Assembly (NCBI GenBank): GCA_016214605.1
Contig: JACROD010000018.1
Coordinates: forward strand, 1-51,332
DNA from: Candidatus Kaiserbacteria bacterium
Lineage (GTDB): Bacteria; Patescibacteriota; Minisyncoccia; Phycocordibacterales; UBA2100
Direction: 5' to 3'
DNA: 51,332 nt
Shown here in pieces: positions 139-8,644 of the stretch (position 1 is the stretch's first letter; every line of letters begins with the position of its first letter). The notes below the pieces were generated by a model. The model was not told the origin of the DNA. It searched no databases and saw only the letters and a list, made by a program, of their open reading frames with translations. The position numbers and the translations under genes were made by a program.

Positions 139-207
139 GTAAATAATAATGCTCACATTATACACGCGATGTACGTGTGTTTCTAATACGTCCACAAGAC
201 ACGCTAC

Positions 208-245
208 ATACACTAACCCTACGCACGTGCGTAAAGTTAGTGTAT
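208..245. promoter_or_regulatory. 38-bp palindrome, copy 1 (putative PaaX-like operator or recombination site)
   Basis: ATACACTAA-CCC-TACGCA-CG-TGCGTA-AAG-TTAGTGTAT; same arms and spacing as 7926-7963 and 8607-8644. Confidence 0.75.
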
Positions 246-268
246 GTACATTCTTTATGAGGAGATTT

Positions 269-310
269 TTATGAATCAAACCTCTTGTTGTACAAGATCA
301 CATCGGTCTC
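269..310 (-). repeat. Duplicated 3' end of the FkbM gene (att-like direct repeat)
   Basis: 276-310 matches 2689-2723 at 33/35 nt. The minus strand encodes ETDVILYNKRFDS*, versus ETDVILYNKKFES* in the intact gene. Confidence 0.85.
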
Positions 311-505
311 ACCACAAGGGCATGGCCATTTTACTAAAGCGGCTTACCGCTAAGAAAAATTGATCTCAAGGAGCTACGGCACCGTGGTGCGCCAGATTTT
401 CTTGACGGTACCCCCGTCTTAGAAAATCCAGTGCAGATCGTACTCGATCTGCCAGAATTGAGCACAATTCTGCCTCTATGAGATACGGGAAGGTGCCCGC
501 CCGCG

Positions 506-1630
506 TTATGCCAGTAGGCCCGTAGCTGAAGCCTTGGTCACCACCTCGATCGAACTCCCGGGATACAGCTCGCCAAACCGCCGTGCTGCCAGCGCCACAG
601 ACCCATCCGACCACTTGCATTCATATCCGTACAATGCACCATCGCGATCCTCAATAAGATCGATCTCTTTCTGATCTGTCGTACGCCAGAAGTAGTGACT
701 CGCCGCGACACCCTCATTACTCAATCGTTTGATCCTCTCGACGATAAAATAGTTTTCAAAAAGAGCACCTACATCCTGCCGAATATCCATCGGATTGTGA
801 TTCTGCAAGATACTGTTGCGCATGCCGATATCGAGGAAATAAACTTTGTACCCCTTCCGTATCTCCTTGCCAGGGTTGCGCGAAAATGCGCGCAATCGTG
901 TGATGATAAACATCTTTTCGAGTATGTCGAGATATTTTGATATGGTCACCAGGCTCGTGTTGAGGTGATTGGCGAGTGAATGCGCCGATACCTCCGATCC
1001 AGTGCGGAGCGCAAGTAGTTTGAGCAGATCCACCAATACCTGCGGTTTGCGCACGCCTTCGAGCGCAAGTATGTCTTTGTAGAGGGCGTTTGCCTGCAAG
1101 CTTTCAAGATCAGCGGTCTTCTTGTCCTCGGGGGCACCGATGATGCCGGGGTAGAATCCGTAGCGAAGGAATATCTCGTACCGTTCATCAAACGCCGCAC
1201 GGCCGATAGTGCCGATGACTTCGGCGACCGATAGCGGGTATAGGATATATTCGCGCGTTCGCCCTGCCATTGATTCGGCGGTTTTCCGGGCGAGGTCAAA
1301 GCTCGACGAACCCGTCGCAATGATCTGCACCTCCGGATAACGATCATGAAATACCTTGAGCGTACGCCCGATATCGGGCACGTATTGCGCCTCATCGAAT
1401 ATGACCATGCGCGCGTCCCCGATGCGGGCCTTCACGACATCCGGATCGGGCACAAGAAAGTCGTGGACGGTACGCACCTGACAGTCAAAATAAAGTCCTC
1501 CTGCACCGTGTTCGGCAAGGATCTTCTTCGCAAGTGTCGTCTTACCTACCTGCCGTGCACCATAAATAATGATCACCTTTCCGTGATGCAGATCGGAGAC
1601 GATTCGTGGCTCAATAGCGCGCTTATACAT
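506..1630 (-). CDS. AAA+ ATPase with DUF4143 C-terminal domain (AAA_14 type)
   Basis: Walker A GARQVGKT, Walker B IFDEAQ, ATGSS motif, GALFENY and WRTTDQKEIDL..ECKW PD-(D/E)xK-like tail. Confidence 0.9.
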   Translation of the reverse strand: MYKRAIEPRIVSDLHHGKVIIIYGARQVGKTTLAKKILAEHGAGGLYFDCQVRTVHDFLVPDPDVVKARIGDARMVIFDEAQYVPDIGRTLKVFHDRYPEVQIIATGSSSFDLARKTAESMAGRTREYILYPLSVAEVIGTIGRAAFDERYEIFLRYGFYPGIIGAPEDKKTADLESLQANALYKDILALEGVRKPQVLVDLLKLLALRTGSEVSAHSLANHLNTSLVTISKYLDILEKMFIITRLRAFSRNPGKEIRKGYKVYFLDIGMRNSILQNHNPMDIRQDVGALFENYFIVERIKRLSNEGVAASHYFWRTTDQKEIDLIEDRDGALYGYECKWSDGSVALAARRFGELYPGSSIEVVTKASATGLLA

Positions 1631-1739
1631 ATATATACCTTATTCCTAAACTATGCTTCAGGAAAAGTATACCAAAAACTAAACCAGGCGCAAGGTTTGG
1701 CTATATAATAACAAAAACTCACTTATCAACCCCTCAGCC

Positions 1740-1765
1740 TGCCGAAAAGTCACGACTTTTCGGCA
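1740..1765. repeat. Perfect 12-bp inverted repeat in divergent intergenic region
   Basis: TGCCGAAAAGTC-AC-GACTTTTCGGCA. Confidence 0.7.
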
Positions 1766-1832
1766 TTTCGCTGTAGAATAGTCATGCTACGGGGTGCCTT
1801 TGTTGGCGTGGATTTTATGCTATTATGTGGAT

Positions 1833-2231
1833 ATGAAGTCAATTAACGCAGAGGTGCTGAAGGGTCTCGCCGAGAAACACGGACTTTCACTCGTGGTGCT
1901 TTTTGGTTCGCAGGCCACCGGCAAGACCCATGCGGGATCCGACACAGATATCGCCTTCTTTTCGATACAACCCAAAAACATGCTCGAGATCGCCGAGATG
2001 CAAATGGAGTTTACGGAAAAGCTCCGGATCAAAGACCTTGAGCTCGTGGACCTCGCCGGCAAAGCTCCCCTCTTTCTCAAGCAAGTGGCGGATCAAGGGA
2101 TCGTCCTATACGAGAAAGATCCGAGCGTGTTTGATGAATTCCAGATCTACGCATTCAAGCGTTATGTCGAGGCGAAACCGCTCTATGCCATGCGAGAAGC
2201 GGCGCTTCACAAGTACCTGCAGACAGTATGA
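1833..2231 (+). CDS. mntA: Minimal nucleotidyltransferase antitoxin (MntA-like)
   Basis: GSQATGKTHAGSDTD matches GSX10DXD. Overlaps a HEPN gene (ATGA). Start placed at the ATG 6 nt after TGcTATTAT. Confidence 0.88.
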   Translation: MKSINAEVLKGLAEKHGLSLVVLFGSQATGKTHAGSDTDIAFFSIQPKNMLEIAEMQMEFTEKLRIKDLELVDLAGKAPLFLKQVADQGIVLYEKDPSVFDEFQIYAFKRYVEAKPLYAMREAALHKYLQTV

Positions 2232-2647
2232 TCAGCCACGAGGTCGTCATCAATAAGCTGGTCGCCGTCAAAGATTACCTCGGCGAGCTTCAGCCACTCC
2301 TTCAAAGAGAGTCGCGCGAGATCATCGACGACAGTGTCGTGCTCCATGCCATTGAACGCCTTTTCCAGCTCATAGTCGATACGTCTATCGATATCAATAC
2401 CTACATCATCGGTGAGTCGGGCTTCAATGTACCCGAAGATTATCAAAGTACATTTATCACGCTCGGGGAACACGGCGTGATCCCGACGGACTTTGCACGC
2501 AAGATCGCGCCTTCTGTCGGGCTACGTAATCAGATCGTGCACAAATACGGCAAAGTCGATCTGAAATTCATGGTGGATCAGATCAAGGGAGAGATCGGAG
2601 ATTATGCGCAATACCTAAAGCACATAGACGAATTTCTCAAGAAATAG
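2228..2647 (+). CDS. hepT: HEPN/DUF86 RNase toxin (HepT-like)
   Basis: RNQIVHKY matches RX4HXY; translationally coupled to the MNT gene. Confidence 0.88.
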   Translation: MISHEVVINKLVAVKDYLGELQPLLQRESREIIDDSVVLHAIERLFQLIVDTSIDINTYIIGESGFNVPEDYQSTFITLGEHGVIPTDFARKIAPSVGLRNQIVHKYGKVDLKFMVDQIKGEIGDYAQYLKHIDEFLKK

Positions 2648-2681
2648 TCTGGTTGCGCGATCCCTGTAATTACAAGATCCA

Positions 2682-3476
2682 CTAGGACTCAAACTTCTTG
2701 TTGTACAAGATCACATCAGTCTCTATGAGGTATGGGAAGGTACCGGCGTTGTTGGGGACGAAGGTGCTGAGCTCGAAGCCTTTGGAGCGATAAAAGGCGA
2801 TCACCTCGGTATAATCGGGGATCCCCTCGTAGAGCTTCTTGATCGAAAGCTCGCTCTGGATCCCGACAAAATGCTCGAGTATCCCCTCTGATCCCTGTGC
2901 GATCGCGAGGTCGCTCCCCTGGGTGTCCATCTTGAGATACGGGCGCTTGAAGCCGAGCTTGGCCTGGTATTTGTCGTACATCTCCTTGAGTGTCACGGTC
3001 TTGACAGGGATCTCGGTGACGAGCGTGTTGCTCTTCTTGAGTGTATTGCCAGCCTCTTTGTCAGAGGGCATGTTGAGCGAGCTGAACTGATCGATCGCCA
3101 TGACCTTGAAGGTCGTATCGCGCGCGGTGCTATCGAGCGCGACCGCCTCGACAAACCAATTGGGATCCTTCTTGGCATTCTTGCGAAGCTTCTCGAGGGC
3201 CCGCGGGACCGGCTCGAAAGAAATGATCGGGCCCTTGTATCCGGTGCGGCGGAGCATCATCGCGTACTGGCCTTCATTGGCTCCCACATCAAAGACGCAG
3301 TCCACCCGGTAGTGCGGGAGGAATCGCTTGAGGTGCACTTGCTCAAAGATCACGCCGATGCGGCGCGGCTTCATGATACGGACGCCAAAGACCCGCTCGA
3401 CGATCGGAGCGTCGAAGATCACTTCGGTATAGTTCACATGTTTGAGCTTGTTGATGATTTTCTTGAGAGTGTTCAT
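2682..3476 (-). CDS. FkbM-family SAM-dependent methyltransferase
   Basis: VFDVGANEGQ, SFEP and LKMDTQGSD motifs. Confidence 0.9.
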   Translation of the reverse strand: MNTLKKIINKLKHVNYTEVIFDAPIVERVFGVRIMKPRRIGVIFEQVHLKRFLPHYRVDCVFDVGANEGQYAMMLRRTGYKGPIISFEPVPRALEKLRKNAKKDPNWFVEAVALDSTARDTTFKVMAIDQFSSLNMPSDKEAGNTLKKSNTLVTEIPVKTVTLKEMYDKYQAKLGFKRPYLKMDTQGSDLAIAQGSEGILEHFVGIQSELSIKKLYEGIPDYTEVIAFYRSKGFELSTFVPNNAGTFPYLIETDVILYNKKFES

Positions 3477-3503: not shown

Positions 3504-5150
3504 TTAATTAGACACTGTGAATGTCCCATTCGACGTAAACGTATGAATCGTATAATCACCGAGCGTTGTAACAACTCCACCAGTGGCGTTCACAGATCCC
3601 GTAGGATATCGAATGATCACAACACCTGAGCCCCCTGCTCCACCTGATGCTCCGAATCCATTCGCGCCACCTCCGCCGCCACCTGTATTCGGTGTTCCTG
3701 CACCACCTGTACCAGTGGTATTAAGGGGCGCTCCATTACCTCCACCACCATAACCTCCATTAGCAGTAGCGGTCCCATCGGCCACACTACCGGCTCCCCC
3801 GCCAGCGAGATAGTACGTTCCTGATACATTTTCACCCACCGTAGAACCCGTGATTGGATTTACAATACCTACACCTCCATTAGCATTGTAGATACCGCCG
3901 GTGCCCGGAGTATCCCCGACACCACCGGCCCCGCCGCCACCGCCACTATATCCACCCACCCCAGTACCACCCCCGTATCCTTCACTTCCAATCGGACTGC
4001 CGCCTGAGTTCACGAGGAACCCTCCTCCGCCCCCTGATCCACCGTCACCTCCAAGCGCTGCTCCTCCTACGGAGTTAGTACCATTTCCTCCCGCACCTCC
4101 GCCATGCGCAATTATCGAACCAAAAACAGAATCGCTGCCTGTTGTATGTGCAGCACCTCCAGCTCCGACTGTAACCGTATATGATCCTGTTGTTACAGCA
4201 TAACTACTTCCTGTTTTAACACCACCTGCCCCTCCTCCACCGGTCCCGTTACCACCATCATTGGTCTGACTAATACCACCTCCCCCTCCTCCCGCAACTA
4301 CCAGATAGTCAACGAGATTCGCGGAGGCTGTACTCGTGGCATATTTGAGCGCGTAAGATCCAAGATAAAATCCATCCACGTCTTTCACAAAATTAATCAC
4401 GTCTTTTCCATTTGTAGTTGTTGTTACGGATGGCTTTGCGCCGCTATTCGGCCATTGAATATCGGATGGCCAGTTTGTGTGCCAACCACCGGTACTGTCT
4501 TGTTTAAGAATGAGTTTGTACACGCCGCCTGCCTGTCCACCTGTGAATGTCAGCGTAGTACTGGCAGTAAGGGTGAATGATTGCACATTGCCATTGTTCC
4601 AATTGATCGTAGAGGACGTAGCTGTCACCAATCTACTATAGATTGCACCAGATACGTCGAGTGCATGTGCGGGAGTTGAATTACCAACGCCTACATTGCC
4701 AGAAGATTTGACATACAAAGCAGGTAATCCTCCGGATGTGGCGACATTGAGCAGATCGAGACTACCCGATCCTTTGATATTCACTTTTGCGGCGGTCGCT
4801 GTGCCGCCAATACTCAAAATGCTGTCGGTATTATTCCAATAAAGCTGACCGTTATCCTGAGCGAAGACCCCTCCCCAGATGAATGGTATTGATCCTTCGG
4901 TAAATGAGGTCGCGCCAGTGCCTCCTTGCGCCAAAAGCCATGGAGTCGCATCCCACTGGAATGTGTGTGTGTTTGAAGCACTGACAATCTTCATATGCAT
5001 CGTGGTCGTAGACGCGGTCGTTGTGGCTAGGGTCTGCGCGGTGCCACTCTGGCCATTTATACTTAATACCACGGCAGATGCGCTGCTCGGCACCACTACA
5101 AGGACCAATGCCGCGATCCCAGAAACAAGGAGTCCATTGAATTTGTTCAT
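3504..5150 (-). CDS. Secreted glycine-rich surface protein with phage-tail-fibre-like segments
   Basis: Signal peptide (…VVVPSSASA), GNVGVGNSTPAHALDVSG repeat, and a DYLVVAGGGGGG…GGSGVVIIRY glycine-rich C-terminal domain. Confidence 0.75.
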   Translation of the reverse strand: MNKFNGLLVSGIAALVLVVVPSSASAVVLSINGQSGTAQTLATTTASTTTMHMKIVSASNTHTFQWDATPWLLAQGGTGATSFTEGSIPFIWGGVFAQDNGQLYWNNTDSILSIGGTATAAKVNIKGSGSLDLLNVATSGGLPALYVKSSGNVGVGNSTPAHALDVSGAIYSRLVTATSSTINWNNGNVQSFTLTASTTLTFTGGQAGGVYKLILKQDSTGGWHTNWPSDIQWPNSGAKPSVTTTTNGKDVINFVKDVDGFYLGSYALKYATSTASANLVDYLVVAGGGGGGISQTNDGGNGTGGGGAGGVKTGSSYAVTTGSYTVTVGAGGAAHTTGSDSVFGSIIAHGGGAGGNGTNSVGGAALGGDGGSGGGGGFLVNSGGSPIGSEGYGGGTGVGGYSGGGGGAGGVGDTPGTGGIYNANGGVGIVNPITGSTVGENVSGTYYLAGGGAGSVADGTATANGGYGGGGNGAPLNTTGTGGAGTPNTGGGGGGANGFGASGGAGGSGVVIIRYPTGSVNATGGVVTTLGDYTIHTFTSNGTFTVSN

Positions 5151-5254
5151 GTAAAAATAGAAGCAAATAATAATGCCTACATTATACACTCAGAAAAATC
5201 ATTCCAACAATACAAGTGGGTGTGATATTATACAAACACAACAAGAAAGCACTT

Positions 5255-5959: not shown

Positions 5960-6043
5960 AATTAACTAAACCGCGCCACGATCCACGCCACACGGGCGGA
6001 CCAGCTGTATTTCCGAGCTACTTTGTGTGGTATAATTGTTTTT

Positions 6044-6325
6044 ATGGTAAAAGCTGAAATTCAATCAAAAATAGTGCCTATTTTGGAACGCGCCCATGTG
6101 CGGAAGGCGGCGATATTTGGCTCAACAGCGCGCGGAGACGATACCTCTGCAAGCGATGTCGATATTCTCATAGAAATGCCGCGGCCGTACAGTTTGTTTT
6201 CATTTTTGACGATCAAAAACGACCTCGAAGATTCGCTCCAAAAAAAAGTCGACCTGATCGAATATGGGACGGTCAAATCTGCGCTTCGAGAACGGATCCT
6301 CAACGATGCCGTCGATATTCTATGA
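6044..6325 (+). CDS. mntA: Minimal nucleotidyltransferase antitoxin (MntA-like)
   Basis: FGSTARGDDTSASDVD. Extended -10 TGgTATAAT lies 7 nt before the ATG. Confidence 0.9.
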   Translation: MVKAEIQSKIVPILERAHVRKAAIFGSTARGDDTSASDVDILIEMPRPYSLFSFLTIKNDLEDSLQKKVDLIEYGTVKSALRERILNDAVDIL

Positions 6326-6666
6326 CTTCCGCTCCTCGCGATGTAAACGTGTATCTCGACGACATCATTACCGCGATCACGCGCATCGAGACATATGTCG
6401 AGGGATTGAACATCGATCAATTTCGTGCCGACTCAAAGACCACCGATGCCGTCGTGAGGAACCTGGAGATCATCGGTGAAGCCGCAAAGAAGATCCCCGA
6501 CGAAATACGCACGGCACATCCGCATATCCAATGGCGTCCGGCCGCCGCGATGCGTGATTTTCTTATTCACGATTATCCATCCGTCGATATCGACGCCGTT
6601 TGGAACACCATCAAAAGTGACTTGCCTGTTTTACGAACAGGGATCGAAGAAATGCGGCGGGGCTAA
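6322..6666 (+). CDS. hepT: HEPN/DUF86 toxin (HepT-like)
   Basis: DAVVRNLEIIGEAAK and RDFLIHDY (RX4HXY); ATGA overlap with the MNT gene. Confidence 0.9.
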   Translation: MTSAPRDVNVYLDDIITAITRIETYVEGLNIDQFRADSKTTDAVVRNLEIIGEAAKKIPDEIRTAHPHIQWRPAAAMRDFLIHDYPSVDIDAVWNTIKSDLPVLRTGIEEMRRG

Positions 6667-7784
6667 AATAGGCTTGTGATCCGGTCTACACGAGCGGCCC
6701 AGCTGTGGGCTTGGGCTGATCGGAGATTTCTCTCCATGGTGTTTGGATTGGGCTCGGTGATCGCTCGCTCGGTCGCTCGGGCGAGACTCTCGGCATCGTC
6801 GGGCTCGTACCAGATGGCATCCGACTCTCCGATGATACTCGTGAGCGCAGGGGTATGGGAGGCGACGATGGGGCGGCGAGCGGCCATATATTCATAGACC
6901 TTCATCGGCGCGGTGTGGCGATATGACTGGTCATTGTGCTTGGTGCCGAGGATGAGCAGTGTGTCGGCGGCGGCGAGCCACAGGGGCACGTCGCTCGGCT
7001 CGCACTCGCCTGCAATGTGGAGATTGGCCGGGAGTGAGGTCCGCCCGGTGACCTTGGTAAATACTTCGGTCGTATCCCCCACCACGTACCAATCCAGCGC
7101 AGGTGCCTGCTTTGCGGCATCGACGAGGATATCGAGACCTTTCCATTCGTAGAATCGCCCCACGTAGAGTGCGATCTTTTTGTCTTGCGGAATATGAAGT
7201 CGCTTTCGCACTTCCCCCTGCGAAGAAGCATGAGCAAAGAGATCAAGGTCGACACCATTGGGCTCGATGATGGTCTTGTCTGATGAAATATCAAATCGAT
7301 CACACAGTGCATCTCGAATCTGCGTATTGGTCACCACAAGCAACTTCACGTGCTTGAAGAAAAATCGCGTGAATATATTGCATGGCTTGATATCATGCAT
7401 CTCGGCCACGACAGGAAACCCGAGGAGCGGGAGTAACGAAAAAGAAAACGTATCCATGTCTATTGTGTACACAATGCACCCCTCTCCTCGCATACGCTTC
7501 CACAGCAGATAGATACTGCTCGTGATGATAAATACGCACGAGCTGATAAAAAATGGGATGCGGCCGGAAGCATACAGGTCGAGCCCGGGAAGGATCGTGG
7601 TCGGTATATCGACGCGGAGTTTGTAGGCATCCTTGAGTGTCGCGATCGACGAGGCGTGCGTGCGCGGGATCACAAGCTCCAGATCGATCTCCGCTTCGAC
7701 AAAAGCCTCGCACATCTTGGCGACCTGTATGCCATAAGCCTTTTTGTTGGGCAGGCGCGCATTTACTATGTAAACGATTTTCAT
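6663..7784 (-). CDS. Glycosyltransferase family 4
   Basis: YVGRFYEWKG and PMKVYEYMAARRPIVAS GT-B motifs. Confidence 0.9.
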   Translation of the reverse strand: MKIVYIVNARLPNKKAYGIQVAKMCEAFVEAEIDLELVIPRTHASSIATLKDAYKLRVDIPTTILPGLDLYASGRIPFFISSCVFIITSSIYLLWKRMRGEGCIVYTIDMDTFSFSLLPLLGFPVVAEMHDIKPCNIFTRFFFKHVKLLVVTNTQIRDALCDRFDISSDKTIIEPNGVDLDLFAHASSQGEVRKRLHIPQDKKIALYVGRFYEWKGLDILVDAAKQAPALDWYVVGDTTEVFTKVTGRTSLPANLHIAGECEPSDVPLWLAAADTLLILGTKHNDQSYRHTAPMKVYEYMAARRPIVASHTPALTSIIGESDAIWYEPDDAESLARATERAITEPNPNTMERNLRSAQAHSWAARVDRITSLF

Positions 7785-7925: not shown

Positions 7926-7963
7926 ATACACTAATTTTGCGCGGTCGCGTAAAGTTAGTGTAT
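7926..7963. promoter_or_regulatory. 38-bp palindrome, copy 2
   Basis: ATACACTAA-TTT-TGCGCG-GT-CGCGTA-AAG-TTAGTGTAT, downstream of the PaaX-like gene. Confidence 0.75.
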
Positions 7964-7997
7964 GCGATATTTGCTGCAAAATTACAGTCTTTGCAGT

Positions 7998-8042
7998 ACT
8001 TACGACACTTATGATACTTGTGATGTTCGTGGCACTTGCAAC
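7998..8042. repeat. Degenerate 9-bp tandem repeat (5 units)
   Basis: ACTTACGAC ACTTATGAT ACTTGTGAT GTTCGTGGC ACTTGCAAC, abutting the PaaX-like stop codon. Confidence 0.6.
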
Positions 8043-8608
8043 TACCCTATTTTGAAATATTTTTTGAGATGCCAATCTCCTTCCAACTCTTCGACGATCA
8101 TATACAACATGTCTTTACCTACCTTGAAGTCGGCTTTCAGAAGCGCGATCAAATCCTCGCAATCATACGGATAAGCCCATACACTATTTTGAAGCCTCAC
8201 AAAACCAATACTGCGGAGTGCACGGCGCACCTTGTCTCGCAATCCCTTTCGGTACTCGGGAATATCAAATATAAGTACTCGCCACTTACCATCCCATCGT
8301 TTCGGCGCCTGCGATGCAAAATCTCGAGCTTCTAGGCGGCGGAGTACCGCCTCTCCCTTAGAGGTCAGCTTTAGTTTGAAACCATCACGCTCTAAGAGCC
8401 CATCTCGCACCAGACGATCGCGAGCACGATTAATAATCTCTTTTTGGCGACGACCGGGGACAAGTCCGAGCTTCCCCATTGCACTAAGAACGTTTGGTGC
8501 CACCATGGCAACCCCGAGCATCCCCGTGAGAGCAACCGTGCCCAACACAAAAGACGTAACGTCTTTCCGTCTTTTTCTTTTTCTTCCTGATTCTTCTATT
8601 TTTCCCAT
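8042..8608 (-). CDS. PaaX-like regulator (winged HTH + Cas2-like domain), CPR type
   Basis: LTSKG wing, WDGKWRVLIFDIPE, LRSIGFVRLQNSVW. No cas1 or CRISPR array nearby. Confidence 0.85.
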   Translation of the reverse strand: MGKIEESGRKRKRRKDVTSFVLGTVALTGMLGVAMVAPNVLSAMGKLGLVPGRRQKEIINRARDRLVRDGLLERDGFKLKLTSKGEAVLRRLEARDFASQAPKRWDGKWRVLIFDIPEYRKGLRDKVRRALRSIGFVRLQNSVWAYPYDCEDLIALLKADFKVGKDMLYMIVEELEGDWHLKKYFKIG

Positions 8609-8644
8609 ACACTAAGTATACGCGACCGTGCACGTTTAGTGTAT
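8607..8644. promoter_or_regulatory. 38-bp palindrome, copy 3, containing the -10 box and overlapping the start codon of the PaaX-like gene
   Basis: ATACACTAA-GTA-TACGCG-AC-CGTGCA-CGT-TTAGTGTAT; the minus strand reads TATACT-tagtgt-ATG. Confidence 0.8.

Follow-up and report, generated by a model that had tools for sequence, protein, structure and literature searches.

A second copy of the FkbM gene end beyond a HepT/MntA-ATPase islet, and comparable gene-tail duplications, in a Candidatus Kaiserbacteria genome

We examined a 51,332-nucleotide contig of Candidatus Kaiserbacteria bacterium (GenBank assembly GCA_016214605.1, contig JACROD010000018.1; the whole stretch is hereafter called the window), near one end of which a gene for an FkbM-family methyltransferase is followed by a toxin-antitoxin (TA) pair, an ATPase gene and a second copy of the methyltransferase gene's own 3' end. 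The window is contig C13 of a genome, G000, of 1.09 Mb in 34 contigs that is 96.8% complete. The FkbM gene (2682..3476, minus strand; 264 aa; Pfam Methyltransf_21, E 1e-12) lies at the border of a polysaccharide gene cluster; its best homolog carries the label Candidatus Kaiserbacteria, which places the genome in the Patescibacteria, and the orthologs P0002 and P0003 match it at 83-84%. Next to it are a HepT-type HEPN toxin gene (2228..2647, plus strand; Pfam HepT-like, E 3e-23; RX4HXY motif RNQIVHKY), a MntA-type nucleotidyltransferase antitoxin gene with a GSX10DXD motif (1833..2231, plus strand; Pfam Polbeta/NTP_transf_2) and the gene for a 374-aa ATPase with AAA_14 and DUF4143 domains by Pfam (506..1630, minus strand), whose stop codon forms the left junction of the islet. 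Beyond that junction lies the displaced FkbM tail in two minus-strand blocks, a proximal one at 474..507 and a distal one at 269..310, parted by a 163-bp composite of nested hairpin repeats (311..473).

The first-pass annotation of this DNA had claimed that the last 14 codons of FkbM recur about 2.4 kb downstream with the stop in the same register, and this is borne out. Positions 270-310 match 2683-2723 at 37 of 41 nucleotides, 2413 bp apart, and on the minus strand the two copies read ETDVILYNKRFDS (displaced) and ETDVILYNKKFES, each followed directly by a stop. In 1000 shuffles of the 2.7-kb downstream region the match never exceeded 26 of 41, and a genome-wide search with a 43-mer returned a single strong second match, the next best covering 21 nt (E 0.023). 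The duplication is in fact longer than the 14 codons, comprising about 69 bp from N243 to the stop in two blocks. The proximal block, which encodes N-A-G, 4 extra nt and T-F-P-Y-L-I-E, matches at 474-500 the stretch 2721-2747 (AGTFPYLIE) at 23 of 27 nt (shuffles reach at most 19). By our reading of the sequence, the match then runs beyond 500 through a 4-nt tandem repeat to the AAC codon of N243 at 507-505, which overlaps the stop codon of the ATPase (508-506). As the ATPase is full length, with the same 374 aa as its 82-89% homologs, the junction falls exactly at its stop codon. A longer decayed FkbM paralog, named beforehand as what would tell against an insertion, did not emerge: tblastn yields only the two short blocks, and the remnant ends at the ATPase stop.

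The differences between the copies are synonymous or conservative, as had been observed at first pass: over the last 66 nt there are 9 differing sites, 8 of them third-position and 7 silent, the conservative changes being K>R and E>D, and both of these variants match FkbM orthologs. Judging by this third-position pattern, both copies were functional alleles. The mismatches were not caught by a filter for diversity-generating retroelements (DGRs), which looks for mismatches confined to the adenines of one copy and which caught three other loci. The current tail (N243 to stop, 2682-2750, minus strand) contains the predicted last β-strand of the enzyme at residues 252-259 of the structure model (pLDDT 89) and, in the alignment, the invariant residues F247, P248 and D254. 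An insertion at this point would hence need a replacement tail, which supports the earlier proposal that the insertion restored the C-terminus of its target. A PDB sequence search with the FkbM alignment gave 0 matches.

It had also been stated that only the ATPase and the TA pair, with no integrase, lie between the copies; this stands for the gene content, while "only" has to be given up since the hairpin composite also lies there. The composite (fold z = -7.1) is bordered by a 3-bp repeat (308-310 and 474-476), and its modules match 19 loci across G000, itself included, and many genomes of the genus. It arrived after the tail duplication. The family to which it belongs is a nested, modular one whose members insert beside or inside other copies and inside dead remnants, and six Y1_Tnp matches in G000 are candidate mobilisers of these repeats. 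A separate array of about 2.8 kb, made of ~62-bp units at ~75% identity, is found at G000 C20:68637-71456.

The insert amounts to 2.2 kb and contains no recombinase match. With their GSX10DXD and RX4HXY motifs, MntA and HepT bear the signatures of class I type VII TA systems, which are described in the cited part of PMC7641770 as PF01934 beside PF01909 with these two motifs; the window pair, recognised by its sequence, shares with them the adjoining PF01934 and PF01909 genes, both motifs and the upstream position of the antitoxin. A PADLOC match links the ATPase to the candidate family PDC-S01 (E 2e-124). At E 1e-12 a search of 400 further genomes of the order gave nothing for the ATPase region, no relative of the ATPase was found in viral contigs, and the closest ATPase within 115 genomes of the genus stands at 44%. 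The cargo has a third-codon-position GC content (GC3) of 0.60-0.65, near the genome median of 0.64, and thus shows no sign of a distant donor; the GC3 of FkbM is 0.79.

A DNA search of the 115 other genomes of the genus found FkbM in just one, at 83% identity, on contig C14 (the same stretch as locus L011) of a sister genome, G062, whose median protein identity to G000 is 74%. There, too, the FkbM tail is duplicated (88 bp at 94%, with both coding differences silent), in this case around a Fic gene, and the remnant starts within ~14 bp of the position in G000. The glycosyltransferase gene downstream of it is orthologous to one on G000 contig C3, and the gene order up to it is kept; a 9-bp flank shared by the end of C3 and the start of the window suggests that C3 continues the locus beyond the window's start. 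The same tail is therefore duplicated around different cargo, indicating that this site held different cargo in two species. A check for an empty site in relatives, as proposed at first pass, returned no clean single-tail FkbM site: the only close ortholog in the genome collection carries other cargo and its own tail duplication, the metagenome collection gave the same contig only, and an apparent match in genome G099 was rejected as an unrelated gene. The closest HepT/MntA homologs in the stretches of G062 that were read (58% and 48%; G062 C3:37843-40880, locus L158) lie elsewhere, between a small gene and its second copy, the latter being interrupted by a hairpin element.

The FkbM islet is one of many. 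A self-comparison of the 961 called genes of G000, from which three DGR-flagged loci had been excluded before the count, revealed 16 with a same-strand downstream tail copy, of which 15 were kept after C25:4421 was put aside by eye as DGR-like; a single upstream tail copy was found, in a repeat protein. At the protein level, a further scan added two targets; its copies were downstream in 19 cases, upstream in 2 and on the reverse strand in 0. G000 holds at least 17 tail-duplication islets, that at FkbM among them. The repeat scan used a cut-off of 35 bits because high-GC controls gave noise at 30 bits (19 copies downstream, 12 upstream). Likewise excluded were, in G062, a palindrome pair of 26 bp and, in the relative G011, an in-frame REP-like repeat; one G062 row classed as HEAD_up was re-read as a tail. 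The remnants measure 24-151 bp and the inserts 46 bp to 3.3 kb, totalling 21 kb or 1.9% of the DNA of G000. Pfam identifies as targets the genes for Hsp20, RpoD, TsaD, two UvrD-type helicases, RecA, RodA/FtsW, MgsA/RarA, a class II tRNA synthetase (read as lysS), an HGTP-anticodon synthetase (read as hisS), a POR/DUF6537 oxidoreductase and a class I methyltransferase. The POR/DUF6537 gene had at one stage been taken for dnaE, an identity that was dropped on this Pfam match. Further targets, by their sequences probably rplL, rplT, rpsG and the gene of a PilB-like ATPase, extend this range. Three of the four RelB matches in G000 lie in tail islets, as does one of the four HepT matches; with one other HepT match in a head islet at rmuC and one in a probable islet at 5965-6666 of the window, the HepT count is 1 to 3 of 4. 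That the TA pair stabilises the FkbM islet, as had been proposed at first pass, is conceivable.

Several repeats stand beside this census. The one convincing duplication of a gene head is that of rmuC (G000 C17:230-368 vs 4653-4791; 140 bp, 79%), whose 4.3-kb insert includes the HepT match just mentioned. In the window, the end of a glycosyltransferase gene (6663-7784, minus strand) recurs weakly (5965-6008 vs 6663-6706), a probable second tail-duplication islet that encloses a second MntA-HepT pair at 6023-6666; the match of 23 of 29 nt (shuffles at most 21) is in frame with a stop nearby, and is borderline genome-wide. Four gene-end repeat pairs resemble the variable and template repeats of DGRs (G000 C12:50731, C16:87257, C18:75718 and C25:4421), three of which were flagged by the single-base mismatch filter.

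The islet load is concentrated in the clade of G000 and G062. G062 has 9-10 islets in 727 kb, or ~13 per Mb; among other relatives, G011 has 1 in 200 kb, G060 0 in 400 kb and G116 0 in 200 kb, and three order-level genomes have 0 in 400 kb. As for controls, E. coli gave 0 in 400 kb, and 79 loci from outside the candidate phyla radiation (1.23 Mb) gave 4 downstream vs 4 upstream. When 30 loci of the genus, G000 included, were inspected for each of three targets within up to 1.5 kb, remnants were seen at 7 for rpoD and at 1 each for recA and rplT, the latter two thus being single-tailed at 29 of 30 loci; single-tail sites are also seen for secY in G000 and lysS in G062.

Across 15 target genes of G000 (17 aligned blocks), 104 of 158 differences fall at third positions (p 8e-17 vs 1/3). 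This indicates that the copies diverged as working alleles rather than through neutral decay and that the two tails come from different lineages. The start points of the remnants vary across genes from -24 to -155, and at rpoD alone the remnant length is 11-27 codons in 6 relatives, and G000 has two stacked remnants of 12 and 38 codons. Of these the proximal one is AT-rich at third positions and unlike the allele of the sister, while the distal one is closer to the sister's; the proximal remnant is foreign-like over a stretch that reaches upstream of the boundary of the distal one. The 3' ends of the repeats lie at or near stop codons on either strand, and the polarity of the tail copies follows the target gene on majority and minority strands alike. 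A model based on replication direction was rejected, the targets being on both. At one pair of sites, G000 C16:2020-2836 and G062 C1:10217-11164, the POR/DUF6537 remnants of the two genomes share the exact start point -46. The TA pairs that they enclose are unrelated and oppositely oriented, and each remnant agrees with its own gene at 97-99%.

On balance, and with moderate confidence, we favour the view that the FkbM islet is the scar of an integrase-free insertion, with a homology anchor in the body of the gene and a microhomology joint just upstream of its stop. The donor DNA would have come from a related lineage in which an FkbM allele preceded the TA pair and the ATPase, and it would have recombined by homology into the resident FkbM; its far end would have joined the resident gene ~69 bp before the stop, over a few matching bases at the ATPase stop codon, such that FkbM stayed whole and the former tail was pushed downstream. 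With a resident allele like the sister's, the two partners would have about 4 nt in common at this joint, where the N243 codon and the ATPase stop overlap. Entry could have been by natural transformation, as G000 encodes ComEC, DprA and RecA, and the lack of MutS (no match in 5 of 5 genomes, G000 included) may let diverged DNA be tolerated, with selection in a gene-dense genome perhaps acting against the commoner deletion outcome. Ordinary double crossovers in the flanks of the cassette could later spread or remove it, and they would also supply the remnant with fresh functional alleles. Stacked remnants such as those at rpoD are expected from successive displacements and require donor homology upstream of the older boundary, hence an anchor in the body of the gene, and the 3' ends of the repeats would lie at or near stop codons because homology between relatives ends there. 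The earlier annotation had left open an attL/attR-like or a homology-driven insertion, and it is the second branch that gains: the many unrelated targets, the variable starts and the lack of integrases argue against attachment (att) sites, above all in the case of so rare a gene as FkbM, with at least 16 other targets and one tyrosine recombinase in the genome. That recombinase, of the Xer type, is encoded on another contig; no serine recombinase match was found in G000, and a tblastn search with the Xer protein, which matched itself alone, detected no integrase fragment in any islet.

Several observations weigh against this reading. No donor locus with FkbM beside the TA-ATPase block was found, in a search that did not cover the contexts of the 82-89% ATPase homologs and of P0003, nor was a clean empty FkbM site in the genome collection, the metagenome collection or the 115 genus genomes. 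The microhomology is short and is deduced from the sister's allele; at a joint made by homology-facilitated illegitimate recombination (HFIR) one of 3-10 bp would be expected. HFIR, as the cited part of PMC3240628 describes it, usually combines insertion with deletion, whereas here no recipient DNA is seen deleted, the tail being duplicated and the order to the downstream glycosyltransferase kept; in the E. coli test of the same report, most duplications arose via circularisation and a single crossover. Some boundaries are shared by G000 and G062 despite different cargo (POR/DUF6537 at -46 in both, rplL and FkbM within a few to ~14 bp), which would also fit site-specific integration or one old event. 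Comparison with the sister, made to tell the old tail from the new, gives a mixed result, the sister siding with the gene at 43 sites and with the remnant at 33 (20 vs 2 at one rpoD remnant, 3 vs 5 for FkbM), and the third-position bias is weaker in G062 (59 of 129, two frameshifted pairs included). Lastly, the genus as a whole shares the competence genes and RecJ, and in three islet-poor genomes MutS is missing too; hence none of these explains the higher load of G000 and G062. Loss of RecJ as its cause was rejected, with a recJ match in 35 of 35 genomes.

Among the alternatives, the incoming DNA might first have closed into a circle in which the cargo end met a small part of the FkbM tail; one crossover inside the 69-bp tail would then have integrated it. 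Such events have a precedent in E. coli, with duplications in 56 of 60 clones and lengths of 109-950 bp in the 14 sequenced (PMC3240628, in the part cited), and the release and re-invasion of repeat-flanked restriction-modification (RM) units has been hypothesised (PMC2853133). In its favour, too, this model predicts mosaic copies, and the outcome of the sister-genome test is mixed. We nevertheless regard it as unlikely: a single crossover would have had only short arms to work with (24-70 bp, 76-90% identity), the foreign sequence at rpoD extends upstream of the older remnant's boundary, and no circle joint was seen in low-depth contigs, a weak test. Each islet could also be the attL/attR remnant of a phage or integrative element whose site-specific integrase has since been lost, resembling a cis-mobilizable element (CIME), the decayed form of integrative elements. 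The 3' ends of rplL and lysS, both targets here, are used with 12-54-bp repeats by streptococcal integrative and conjugative elements (ICEs) (PMC4701971, in the part cited), patescibacterial prophages with predicted att sites exist (PMC13059738), and the boundaries shared despite different cargo speak for this model. Against these points stand the absence of integrase fragments from all islets, at 17 or more unrelated targets, the presence of FkbM in 1 of 115 genus genomes, too rare for a primary att site, rpoD boundaries varying from 11 to 38 codons, and exact-pattern scans, of limited sensitivity, in which no viral contig fits the degenerate patterns of the FkbM, rpoD and POR/DUF6537 tails, all of which makes this origin rather improbable. 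The earlier suggestion that excision would swap the methyltransferase tail holds formally, and only for a crossover in the distal 41 bp that would give K>R and E>D and an intact FkbM ending in RFDS; the remnant is interrupted, and a crossover in the proximal block would leave FkbM broken. Four contig sets from one study, all of low depth, contain no excised joint, a weak test, and the FkbM repeat is probably not an active att site.

Alternatively, an HUH (Y1/REP-associated) transposase might make the non-homologous joint at DNA hairpins, homology providing the other end. One of the six Y1_Tnp matches of G000 is cargo at rpoD, 6 of 15 junctions have a strong hairpin no more than 60 nt away, and hairpin elements occur inside the FkbM remnant and inside a duplicated gene copy in G062. 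The enrichment of hairpins at junctions is, however, non-significant (p 0.08), the FkbM junction at the ATPase stop has no hairpin and no common junction motif is visible, so that we consider such a role quite improbable. Least credible is a local tandem duplication of the tail with subsequent cargo insertion and neutral decay, or an assembly artefact. While some pairs are indeed 94-100% identical, the strong third-position bias contradicts local duplication; as to an artefact, two stretches, 110-503 and 274-532, recur unchanged in contigs from public runs of the same study (perhaps of the source sample itself), and a second genome has the same architecture.

A broader picture is conceivable, which we put forward tentatively: the gene ends of this clade, those of almost any gene, might serve as docking anchors for integrase-free capture, by competence and RecA, of neighbouring genes of relatives, with no mismatch-repair check and possible help from an HUH nuclease, the displaced tail being kept. 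TA and defence cassettes would in this way build up into a dispersed array that can be renewed, as if Rhs-type tip displacement operated across the whole genome. The FkbM islet by itself is an old, partly disrupted scar from which no effect on the enzyme is expected.

Other features frame the locus. The first 138 bp of the window are the end of a multicopy insertion sequence, identical at 8 or more other contig ends among the matches listed; this element, present at 1-138 and from 51193 onward, breaks the assembly at many contig ends. At 205..248, outside the islet, lies a palindrome of a family that flanks a PaaX-like gene (8042-8608), with copies at 205-248 (aligned from 208), 7926-7964, 8607-8644 and G000 C5:6456; the copy at 205-248, which precedes the promoter of a glycine-rich gene on C3, has no PaaX gene next to it. 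The FkbM islet is bracketed by genes for two 560-aa glycine-rich paralogs (window 3504-5189 and G000 C3:75802-77490), whose promoter sequences are similar (141-165 and 5165-5189); the window copy matches Gly_rich_2. The sister locus is without either paralog.

Patescibacteria have many horizontally gained genes and are proposed to be naturally competent (PMC12455944, in the part cited), and the present observations address how non-homologous genes enter such compact genomes. Duplicated, allele-like gene tails constitute a countable footprint that can be surveyed across the phylum, and the favoured model predicts for cultured strains that one-sided homology at a gene end yields tail duplications. 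They also carry a warning: a duplicated 3' end alone is no evidence of an integrase att site. A literature search, with most subscription papers outside its reach, found no paper on the tail-duplication pattern in Patescibacteria.

Comparison with known systems, on the parts of the reports cited, brings out several partial likenesses. The minimal mobile elements described in Neisseria (PMC3787668) have conserved flanks between which differing cargo is swapped by homologous recombination; comparably, the cargo between FkbM and the downstream glycosyltransferase is not the same in G000 as in G062. The quoted definition of these elements is without a terminal duplication, unlike the FkbM islet. 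The attL/attR sites of ICEs and phages (PMC4701971) share the replacement 3' end that restores the target, repeats of 12-54 bp and rplL and lysS as targets, from which the G000 islets depart in having no integrase or fragment thereof, variable boundaries, a rare accessory target and repeats of up to 151 bp. HFIR and the sequential displacement at type VI secretion system (T6SS)/Rhs loci (PMC3240628, PMC5361080) resemble them in the homologous anchor at one end with short or no homology at the other, in the old 3' end being moved downstream and in the arrays that repeated events build. HFIR deletes about as much as it inserts (PMC3240628), whereas the G000 islets have a duplicated tail and no deletion seen, and the T6SS/Rhs targets are toxin tips as against housekeeping and polysaccharide-locus genes here. 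Closest is the insertion with long target duplication of Furuta, Abe and Kobayashi (2010; PMC2853133), reported as 9 cases in 760 locus pairs, with repeats of 44/46-47/47 (their Table 2), RM cargo as a criterion and further cases in the supplements. The likeness extends to inserts below 20 kb, direct repeats above 30 bp, unrelated targets, no mobility gene, mostly naturally competent species and addictive cargo, RM there and TA here. The FkbM islet differs in that its cargo is HepT/MntA and an ATPase without RM genes, and the G000 islets in general in that the repeats are in-frame gene 3' ends, allele-like (86% for FkbM), at least 17 cases occur in one genome, targets are reused with new cargo and remnants stack. 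Except for the RM cargo, the architecture fits insertion with long target duplication, of which it is best read as a variant, and it also agrees with the displacement model for T6SS and Rhs loci (PMC5361080). The present work adds a controlled census, the finding that identical targets are used again for other cargo, stacked remnants and a concentration of TA genes.

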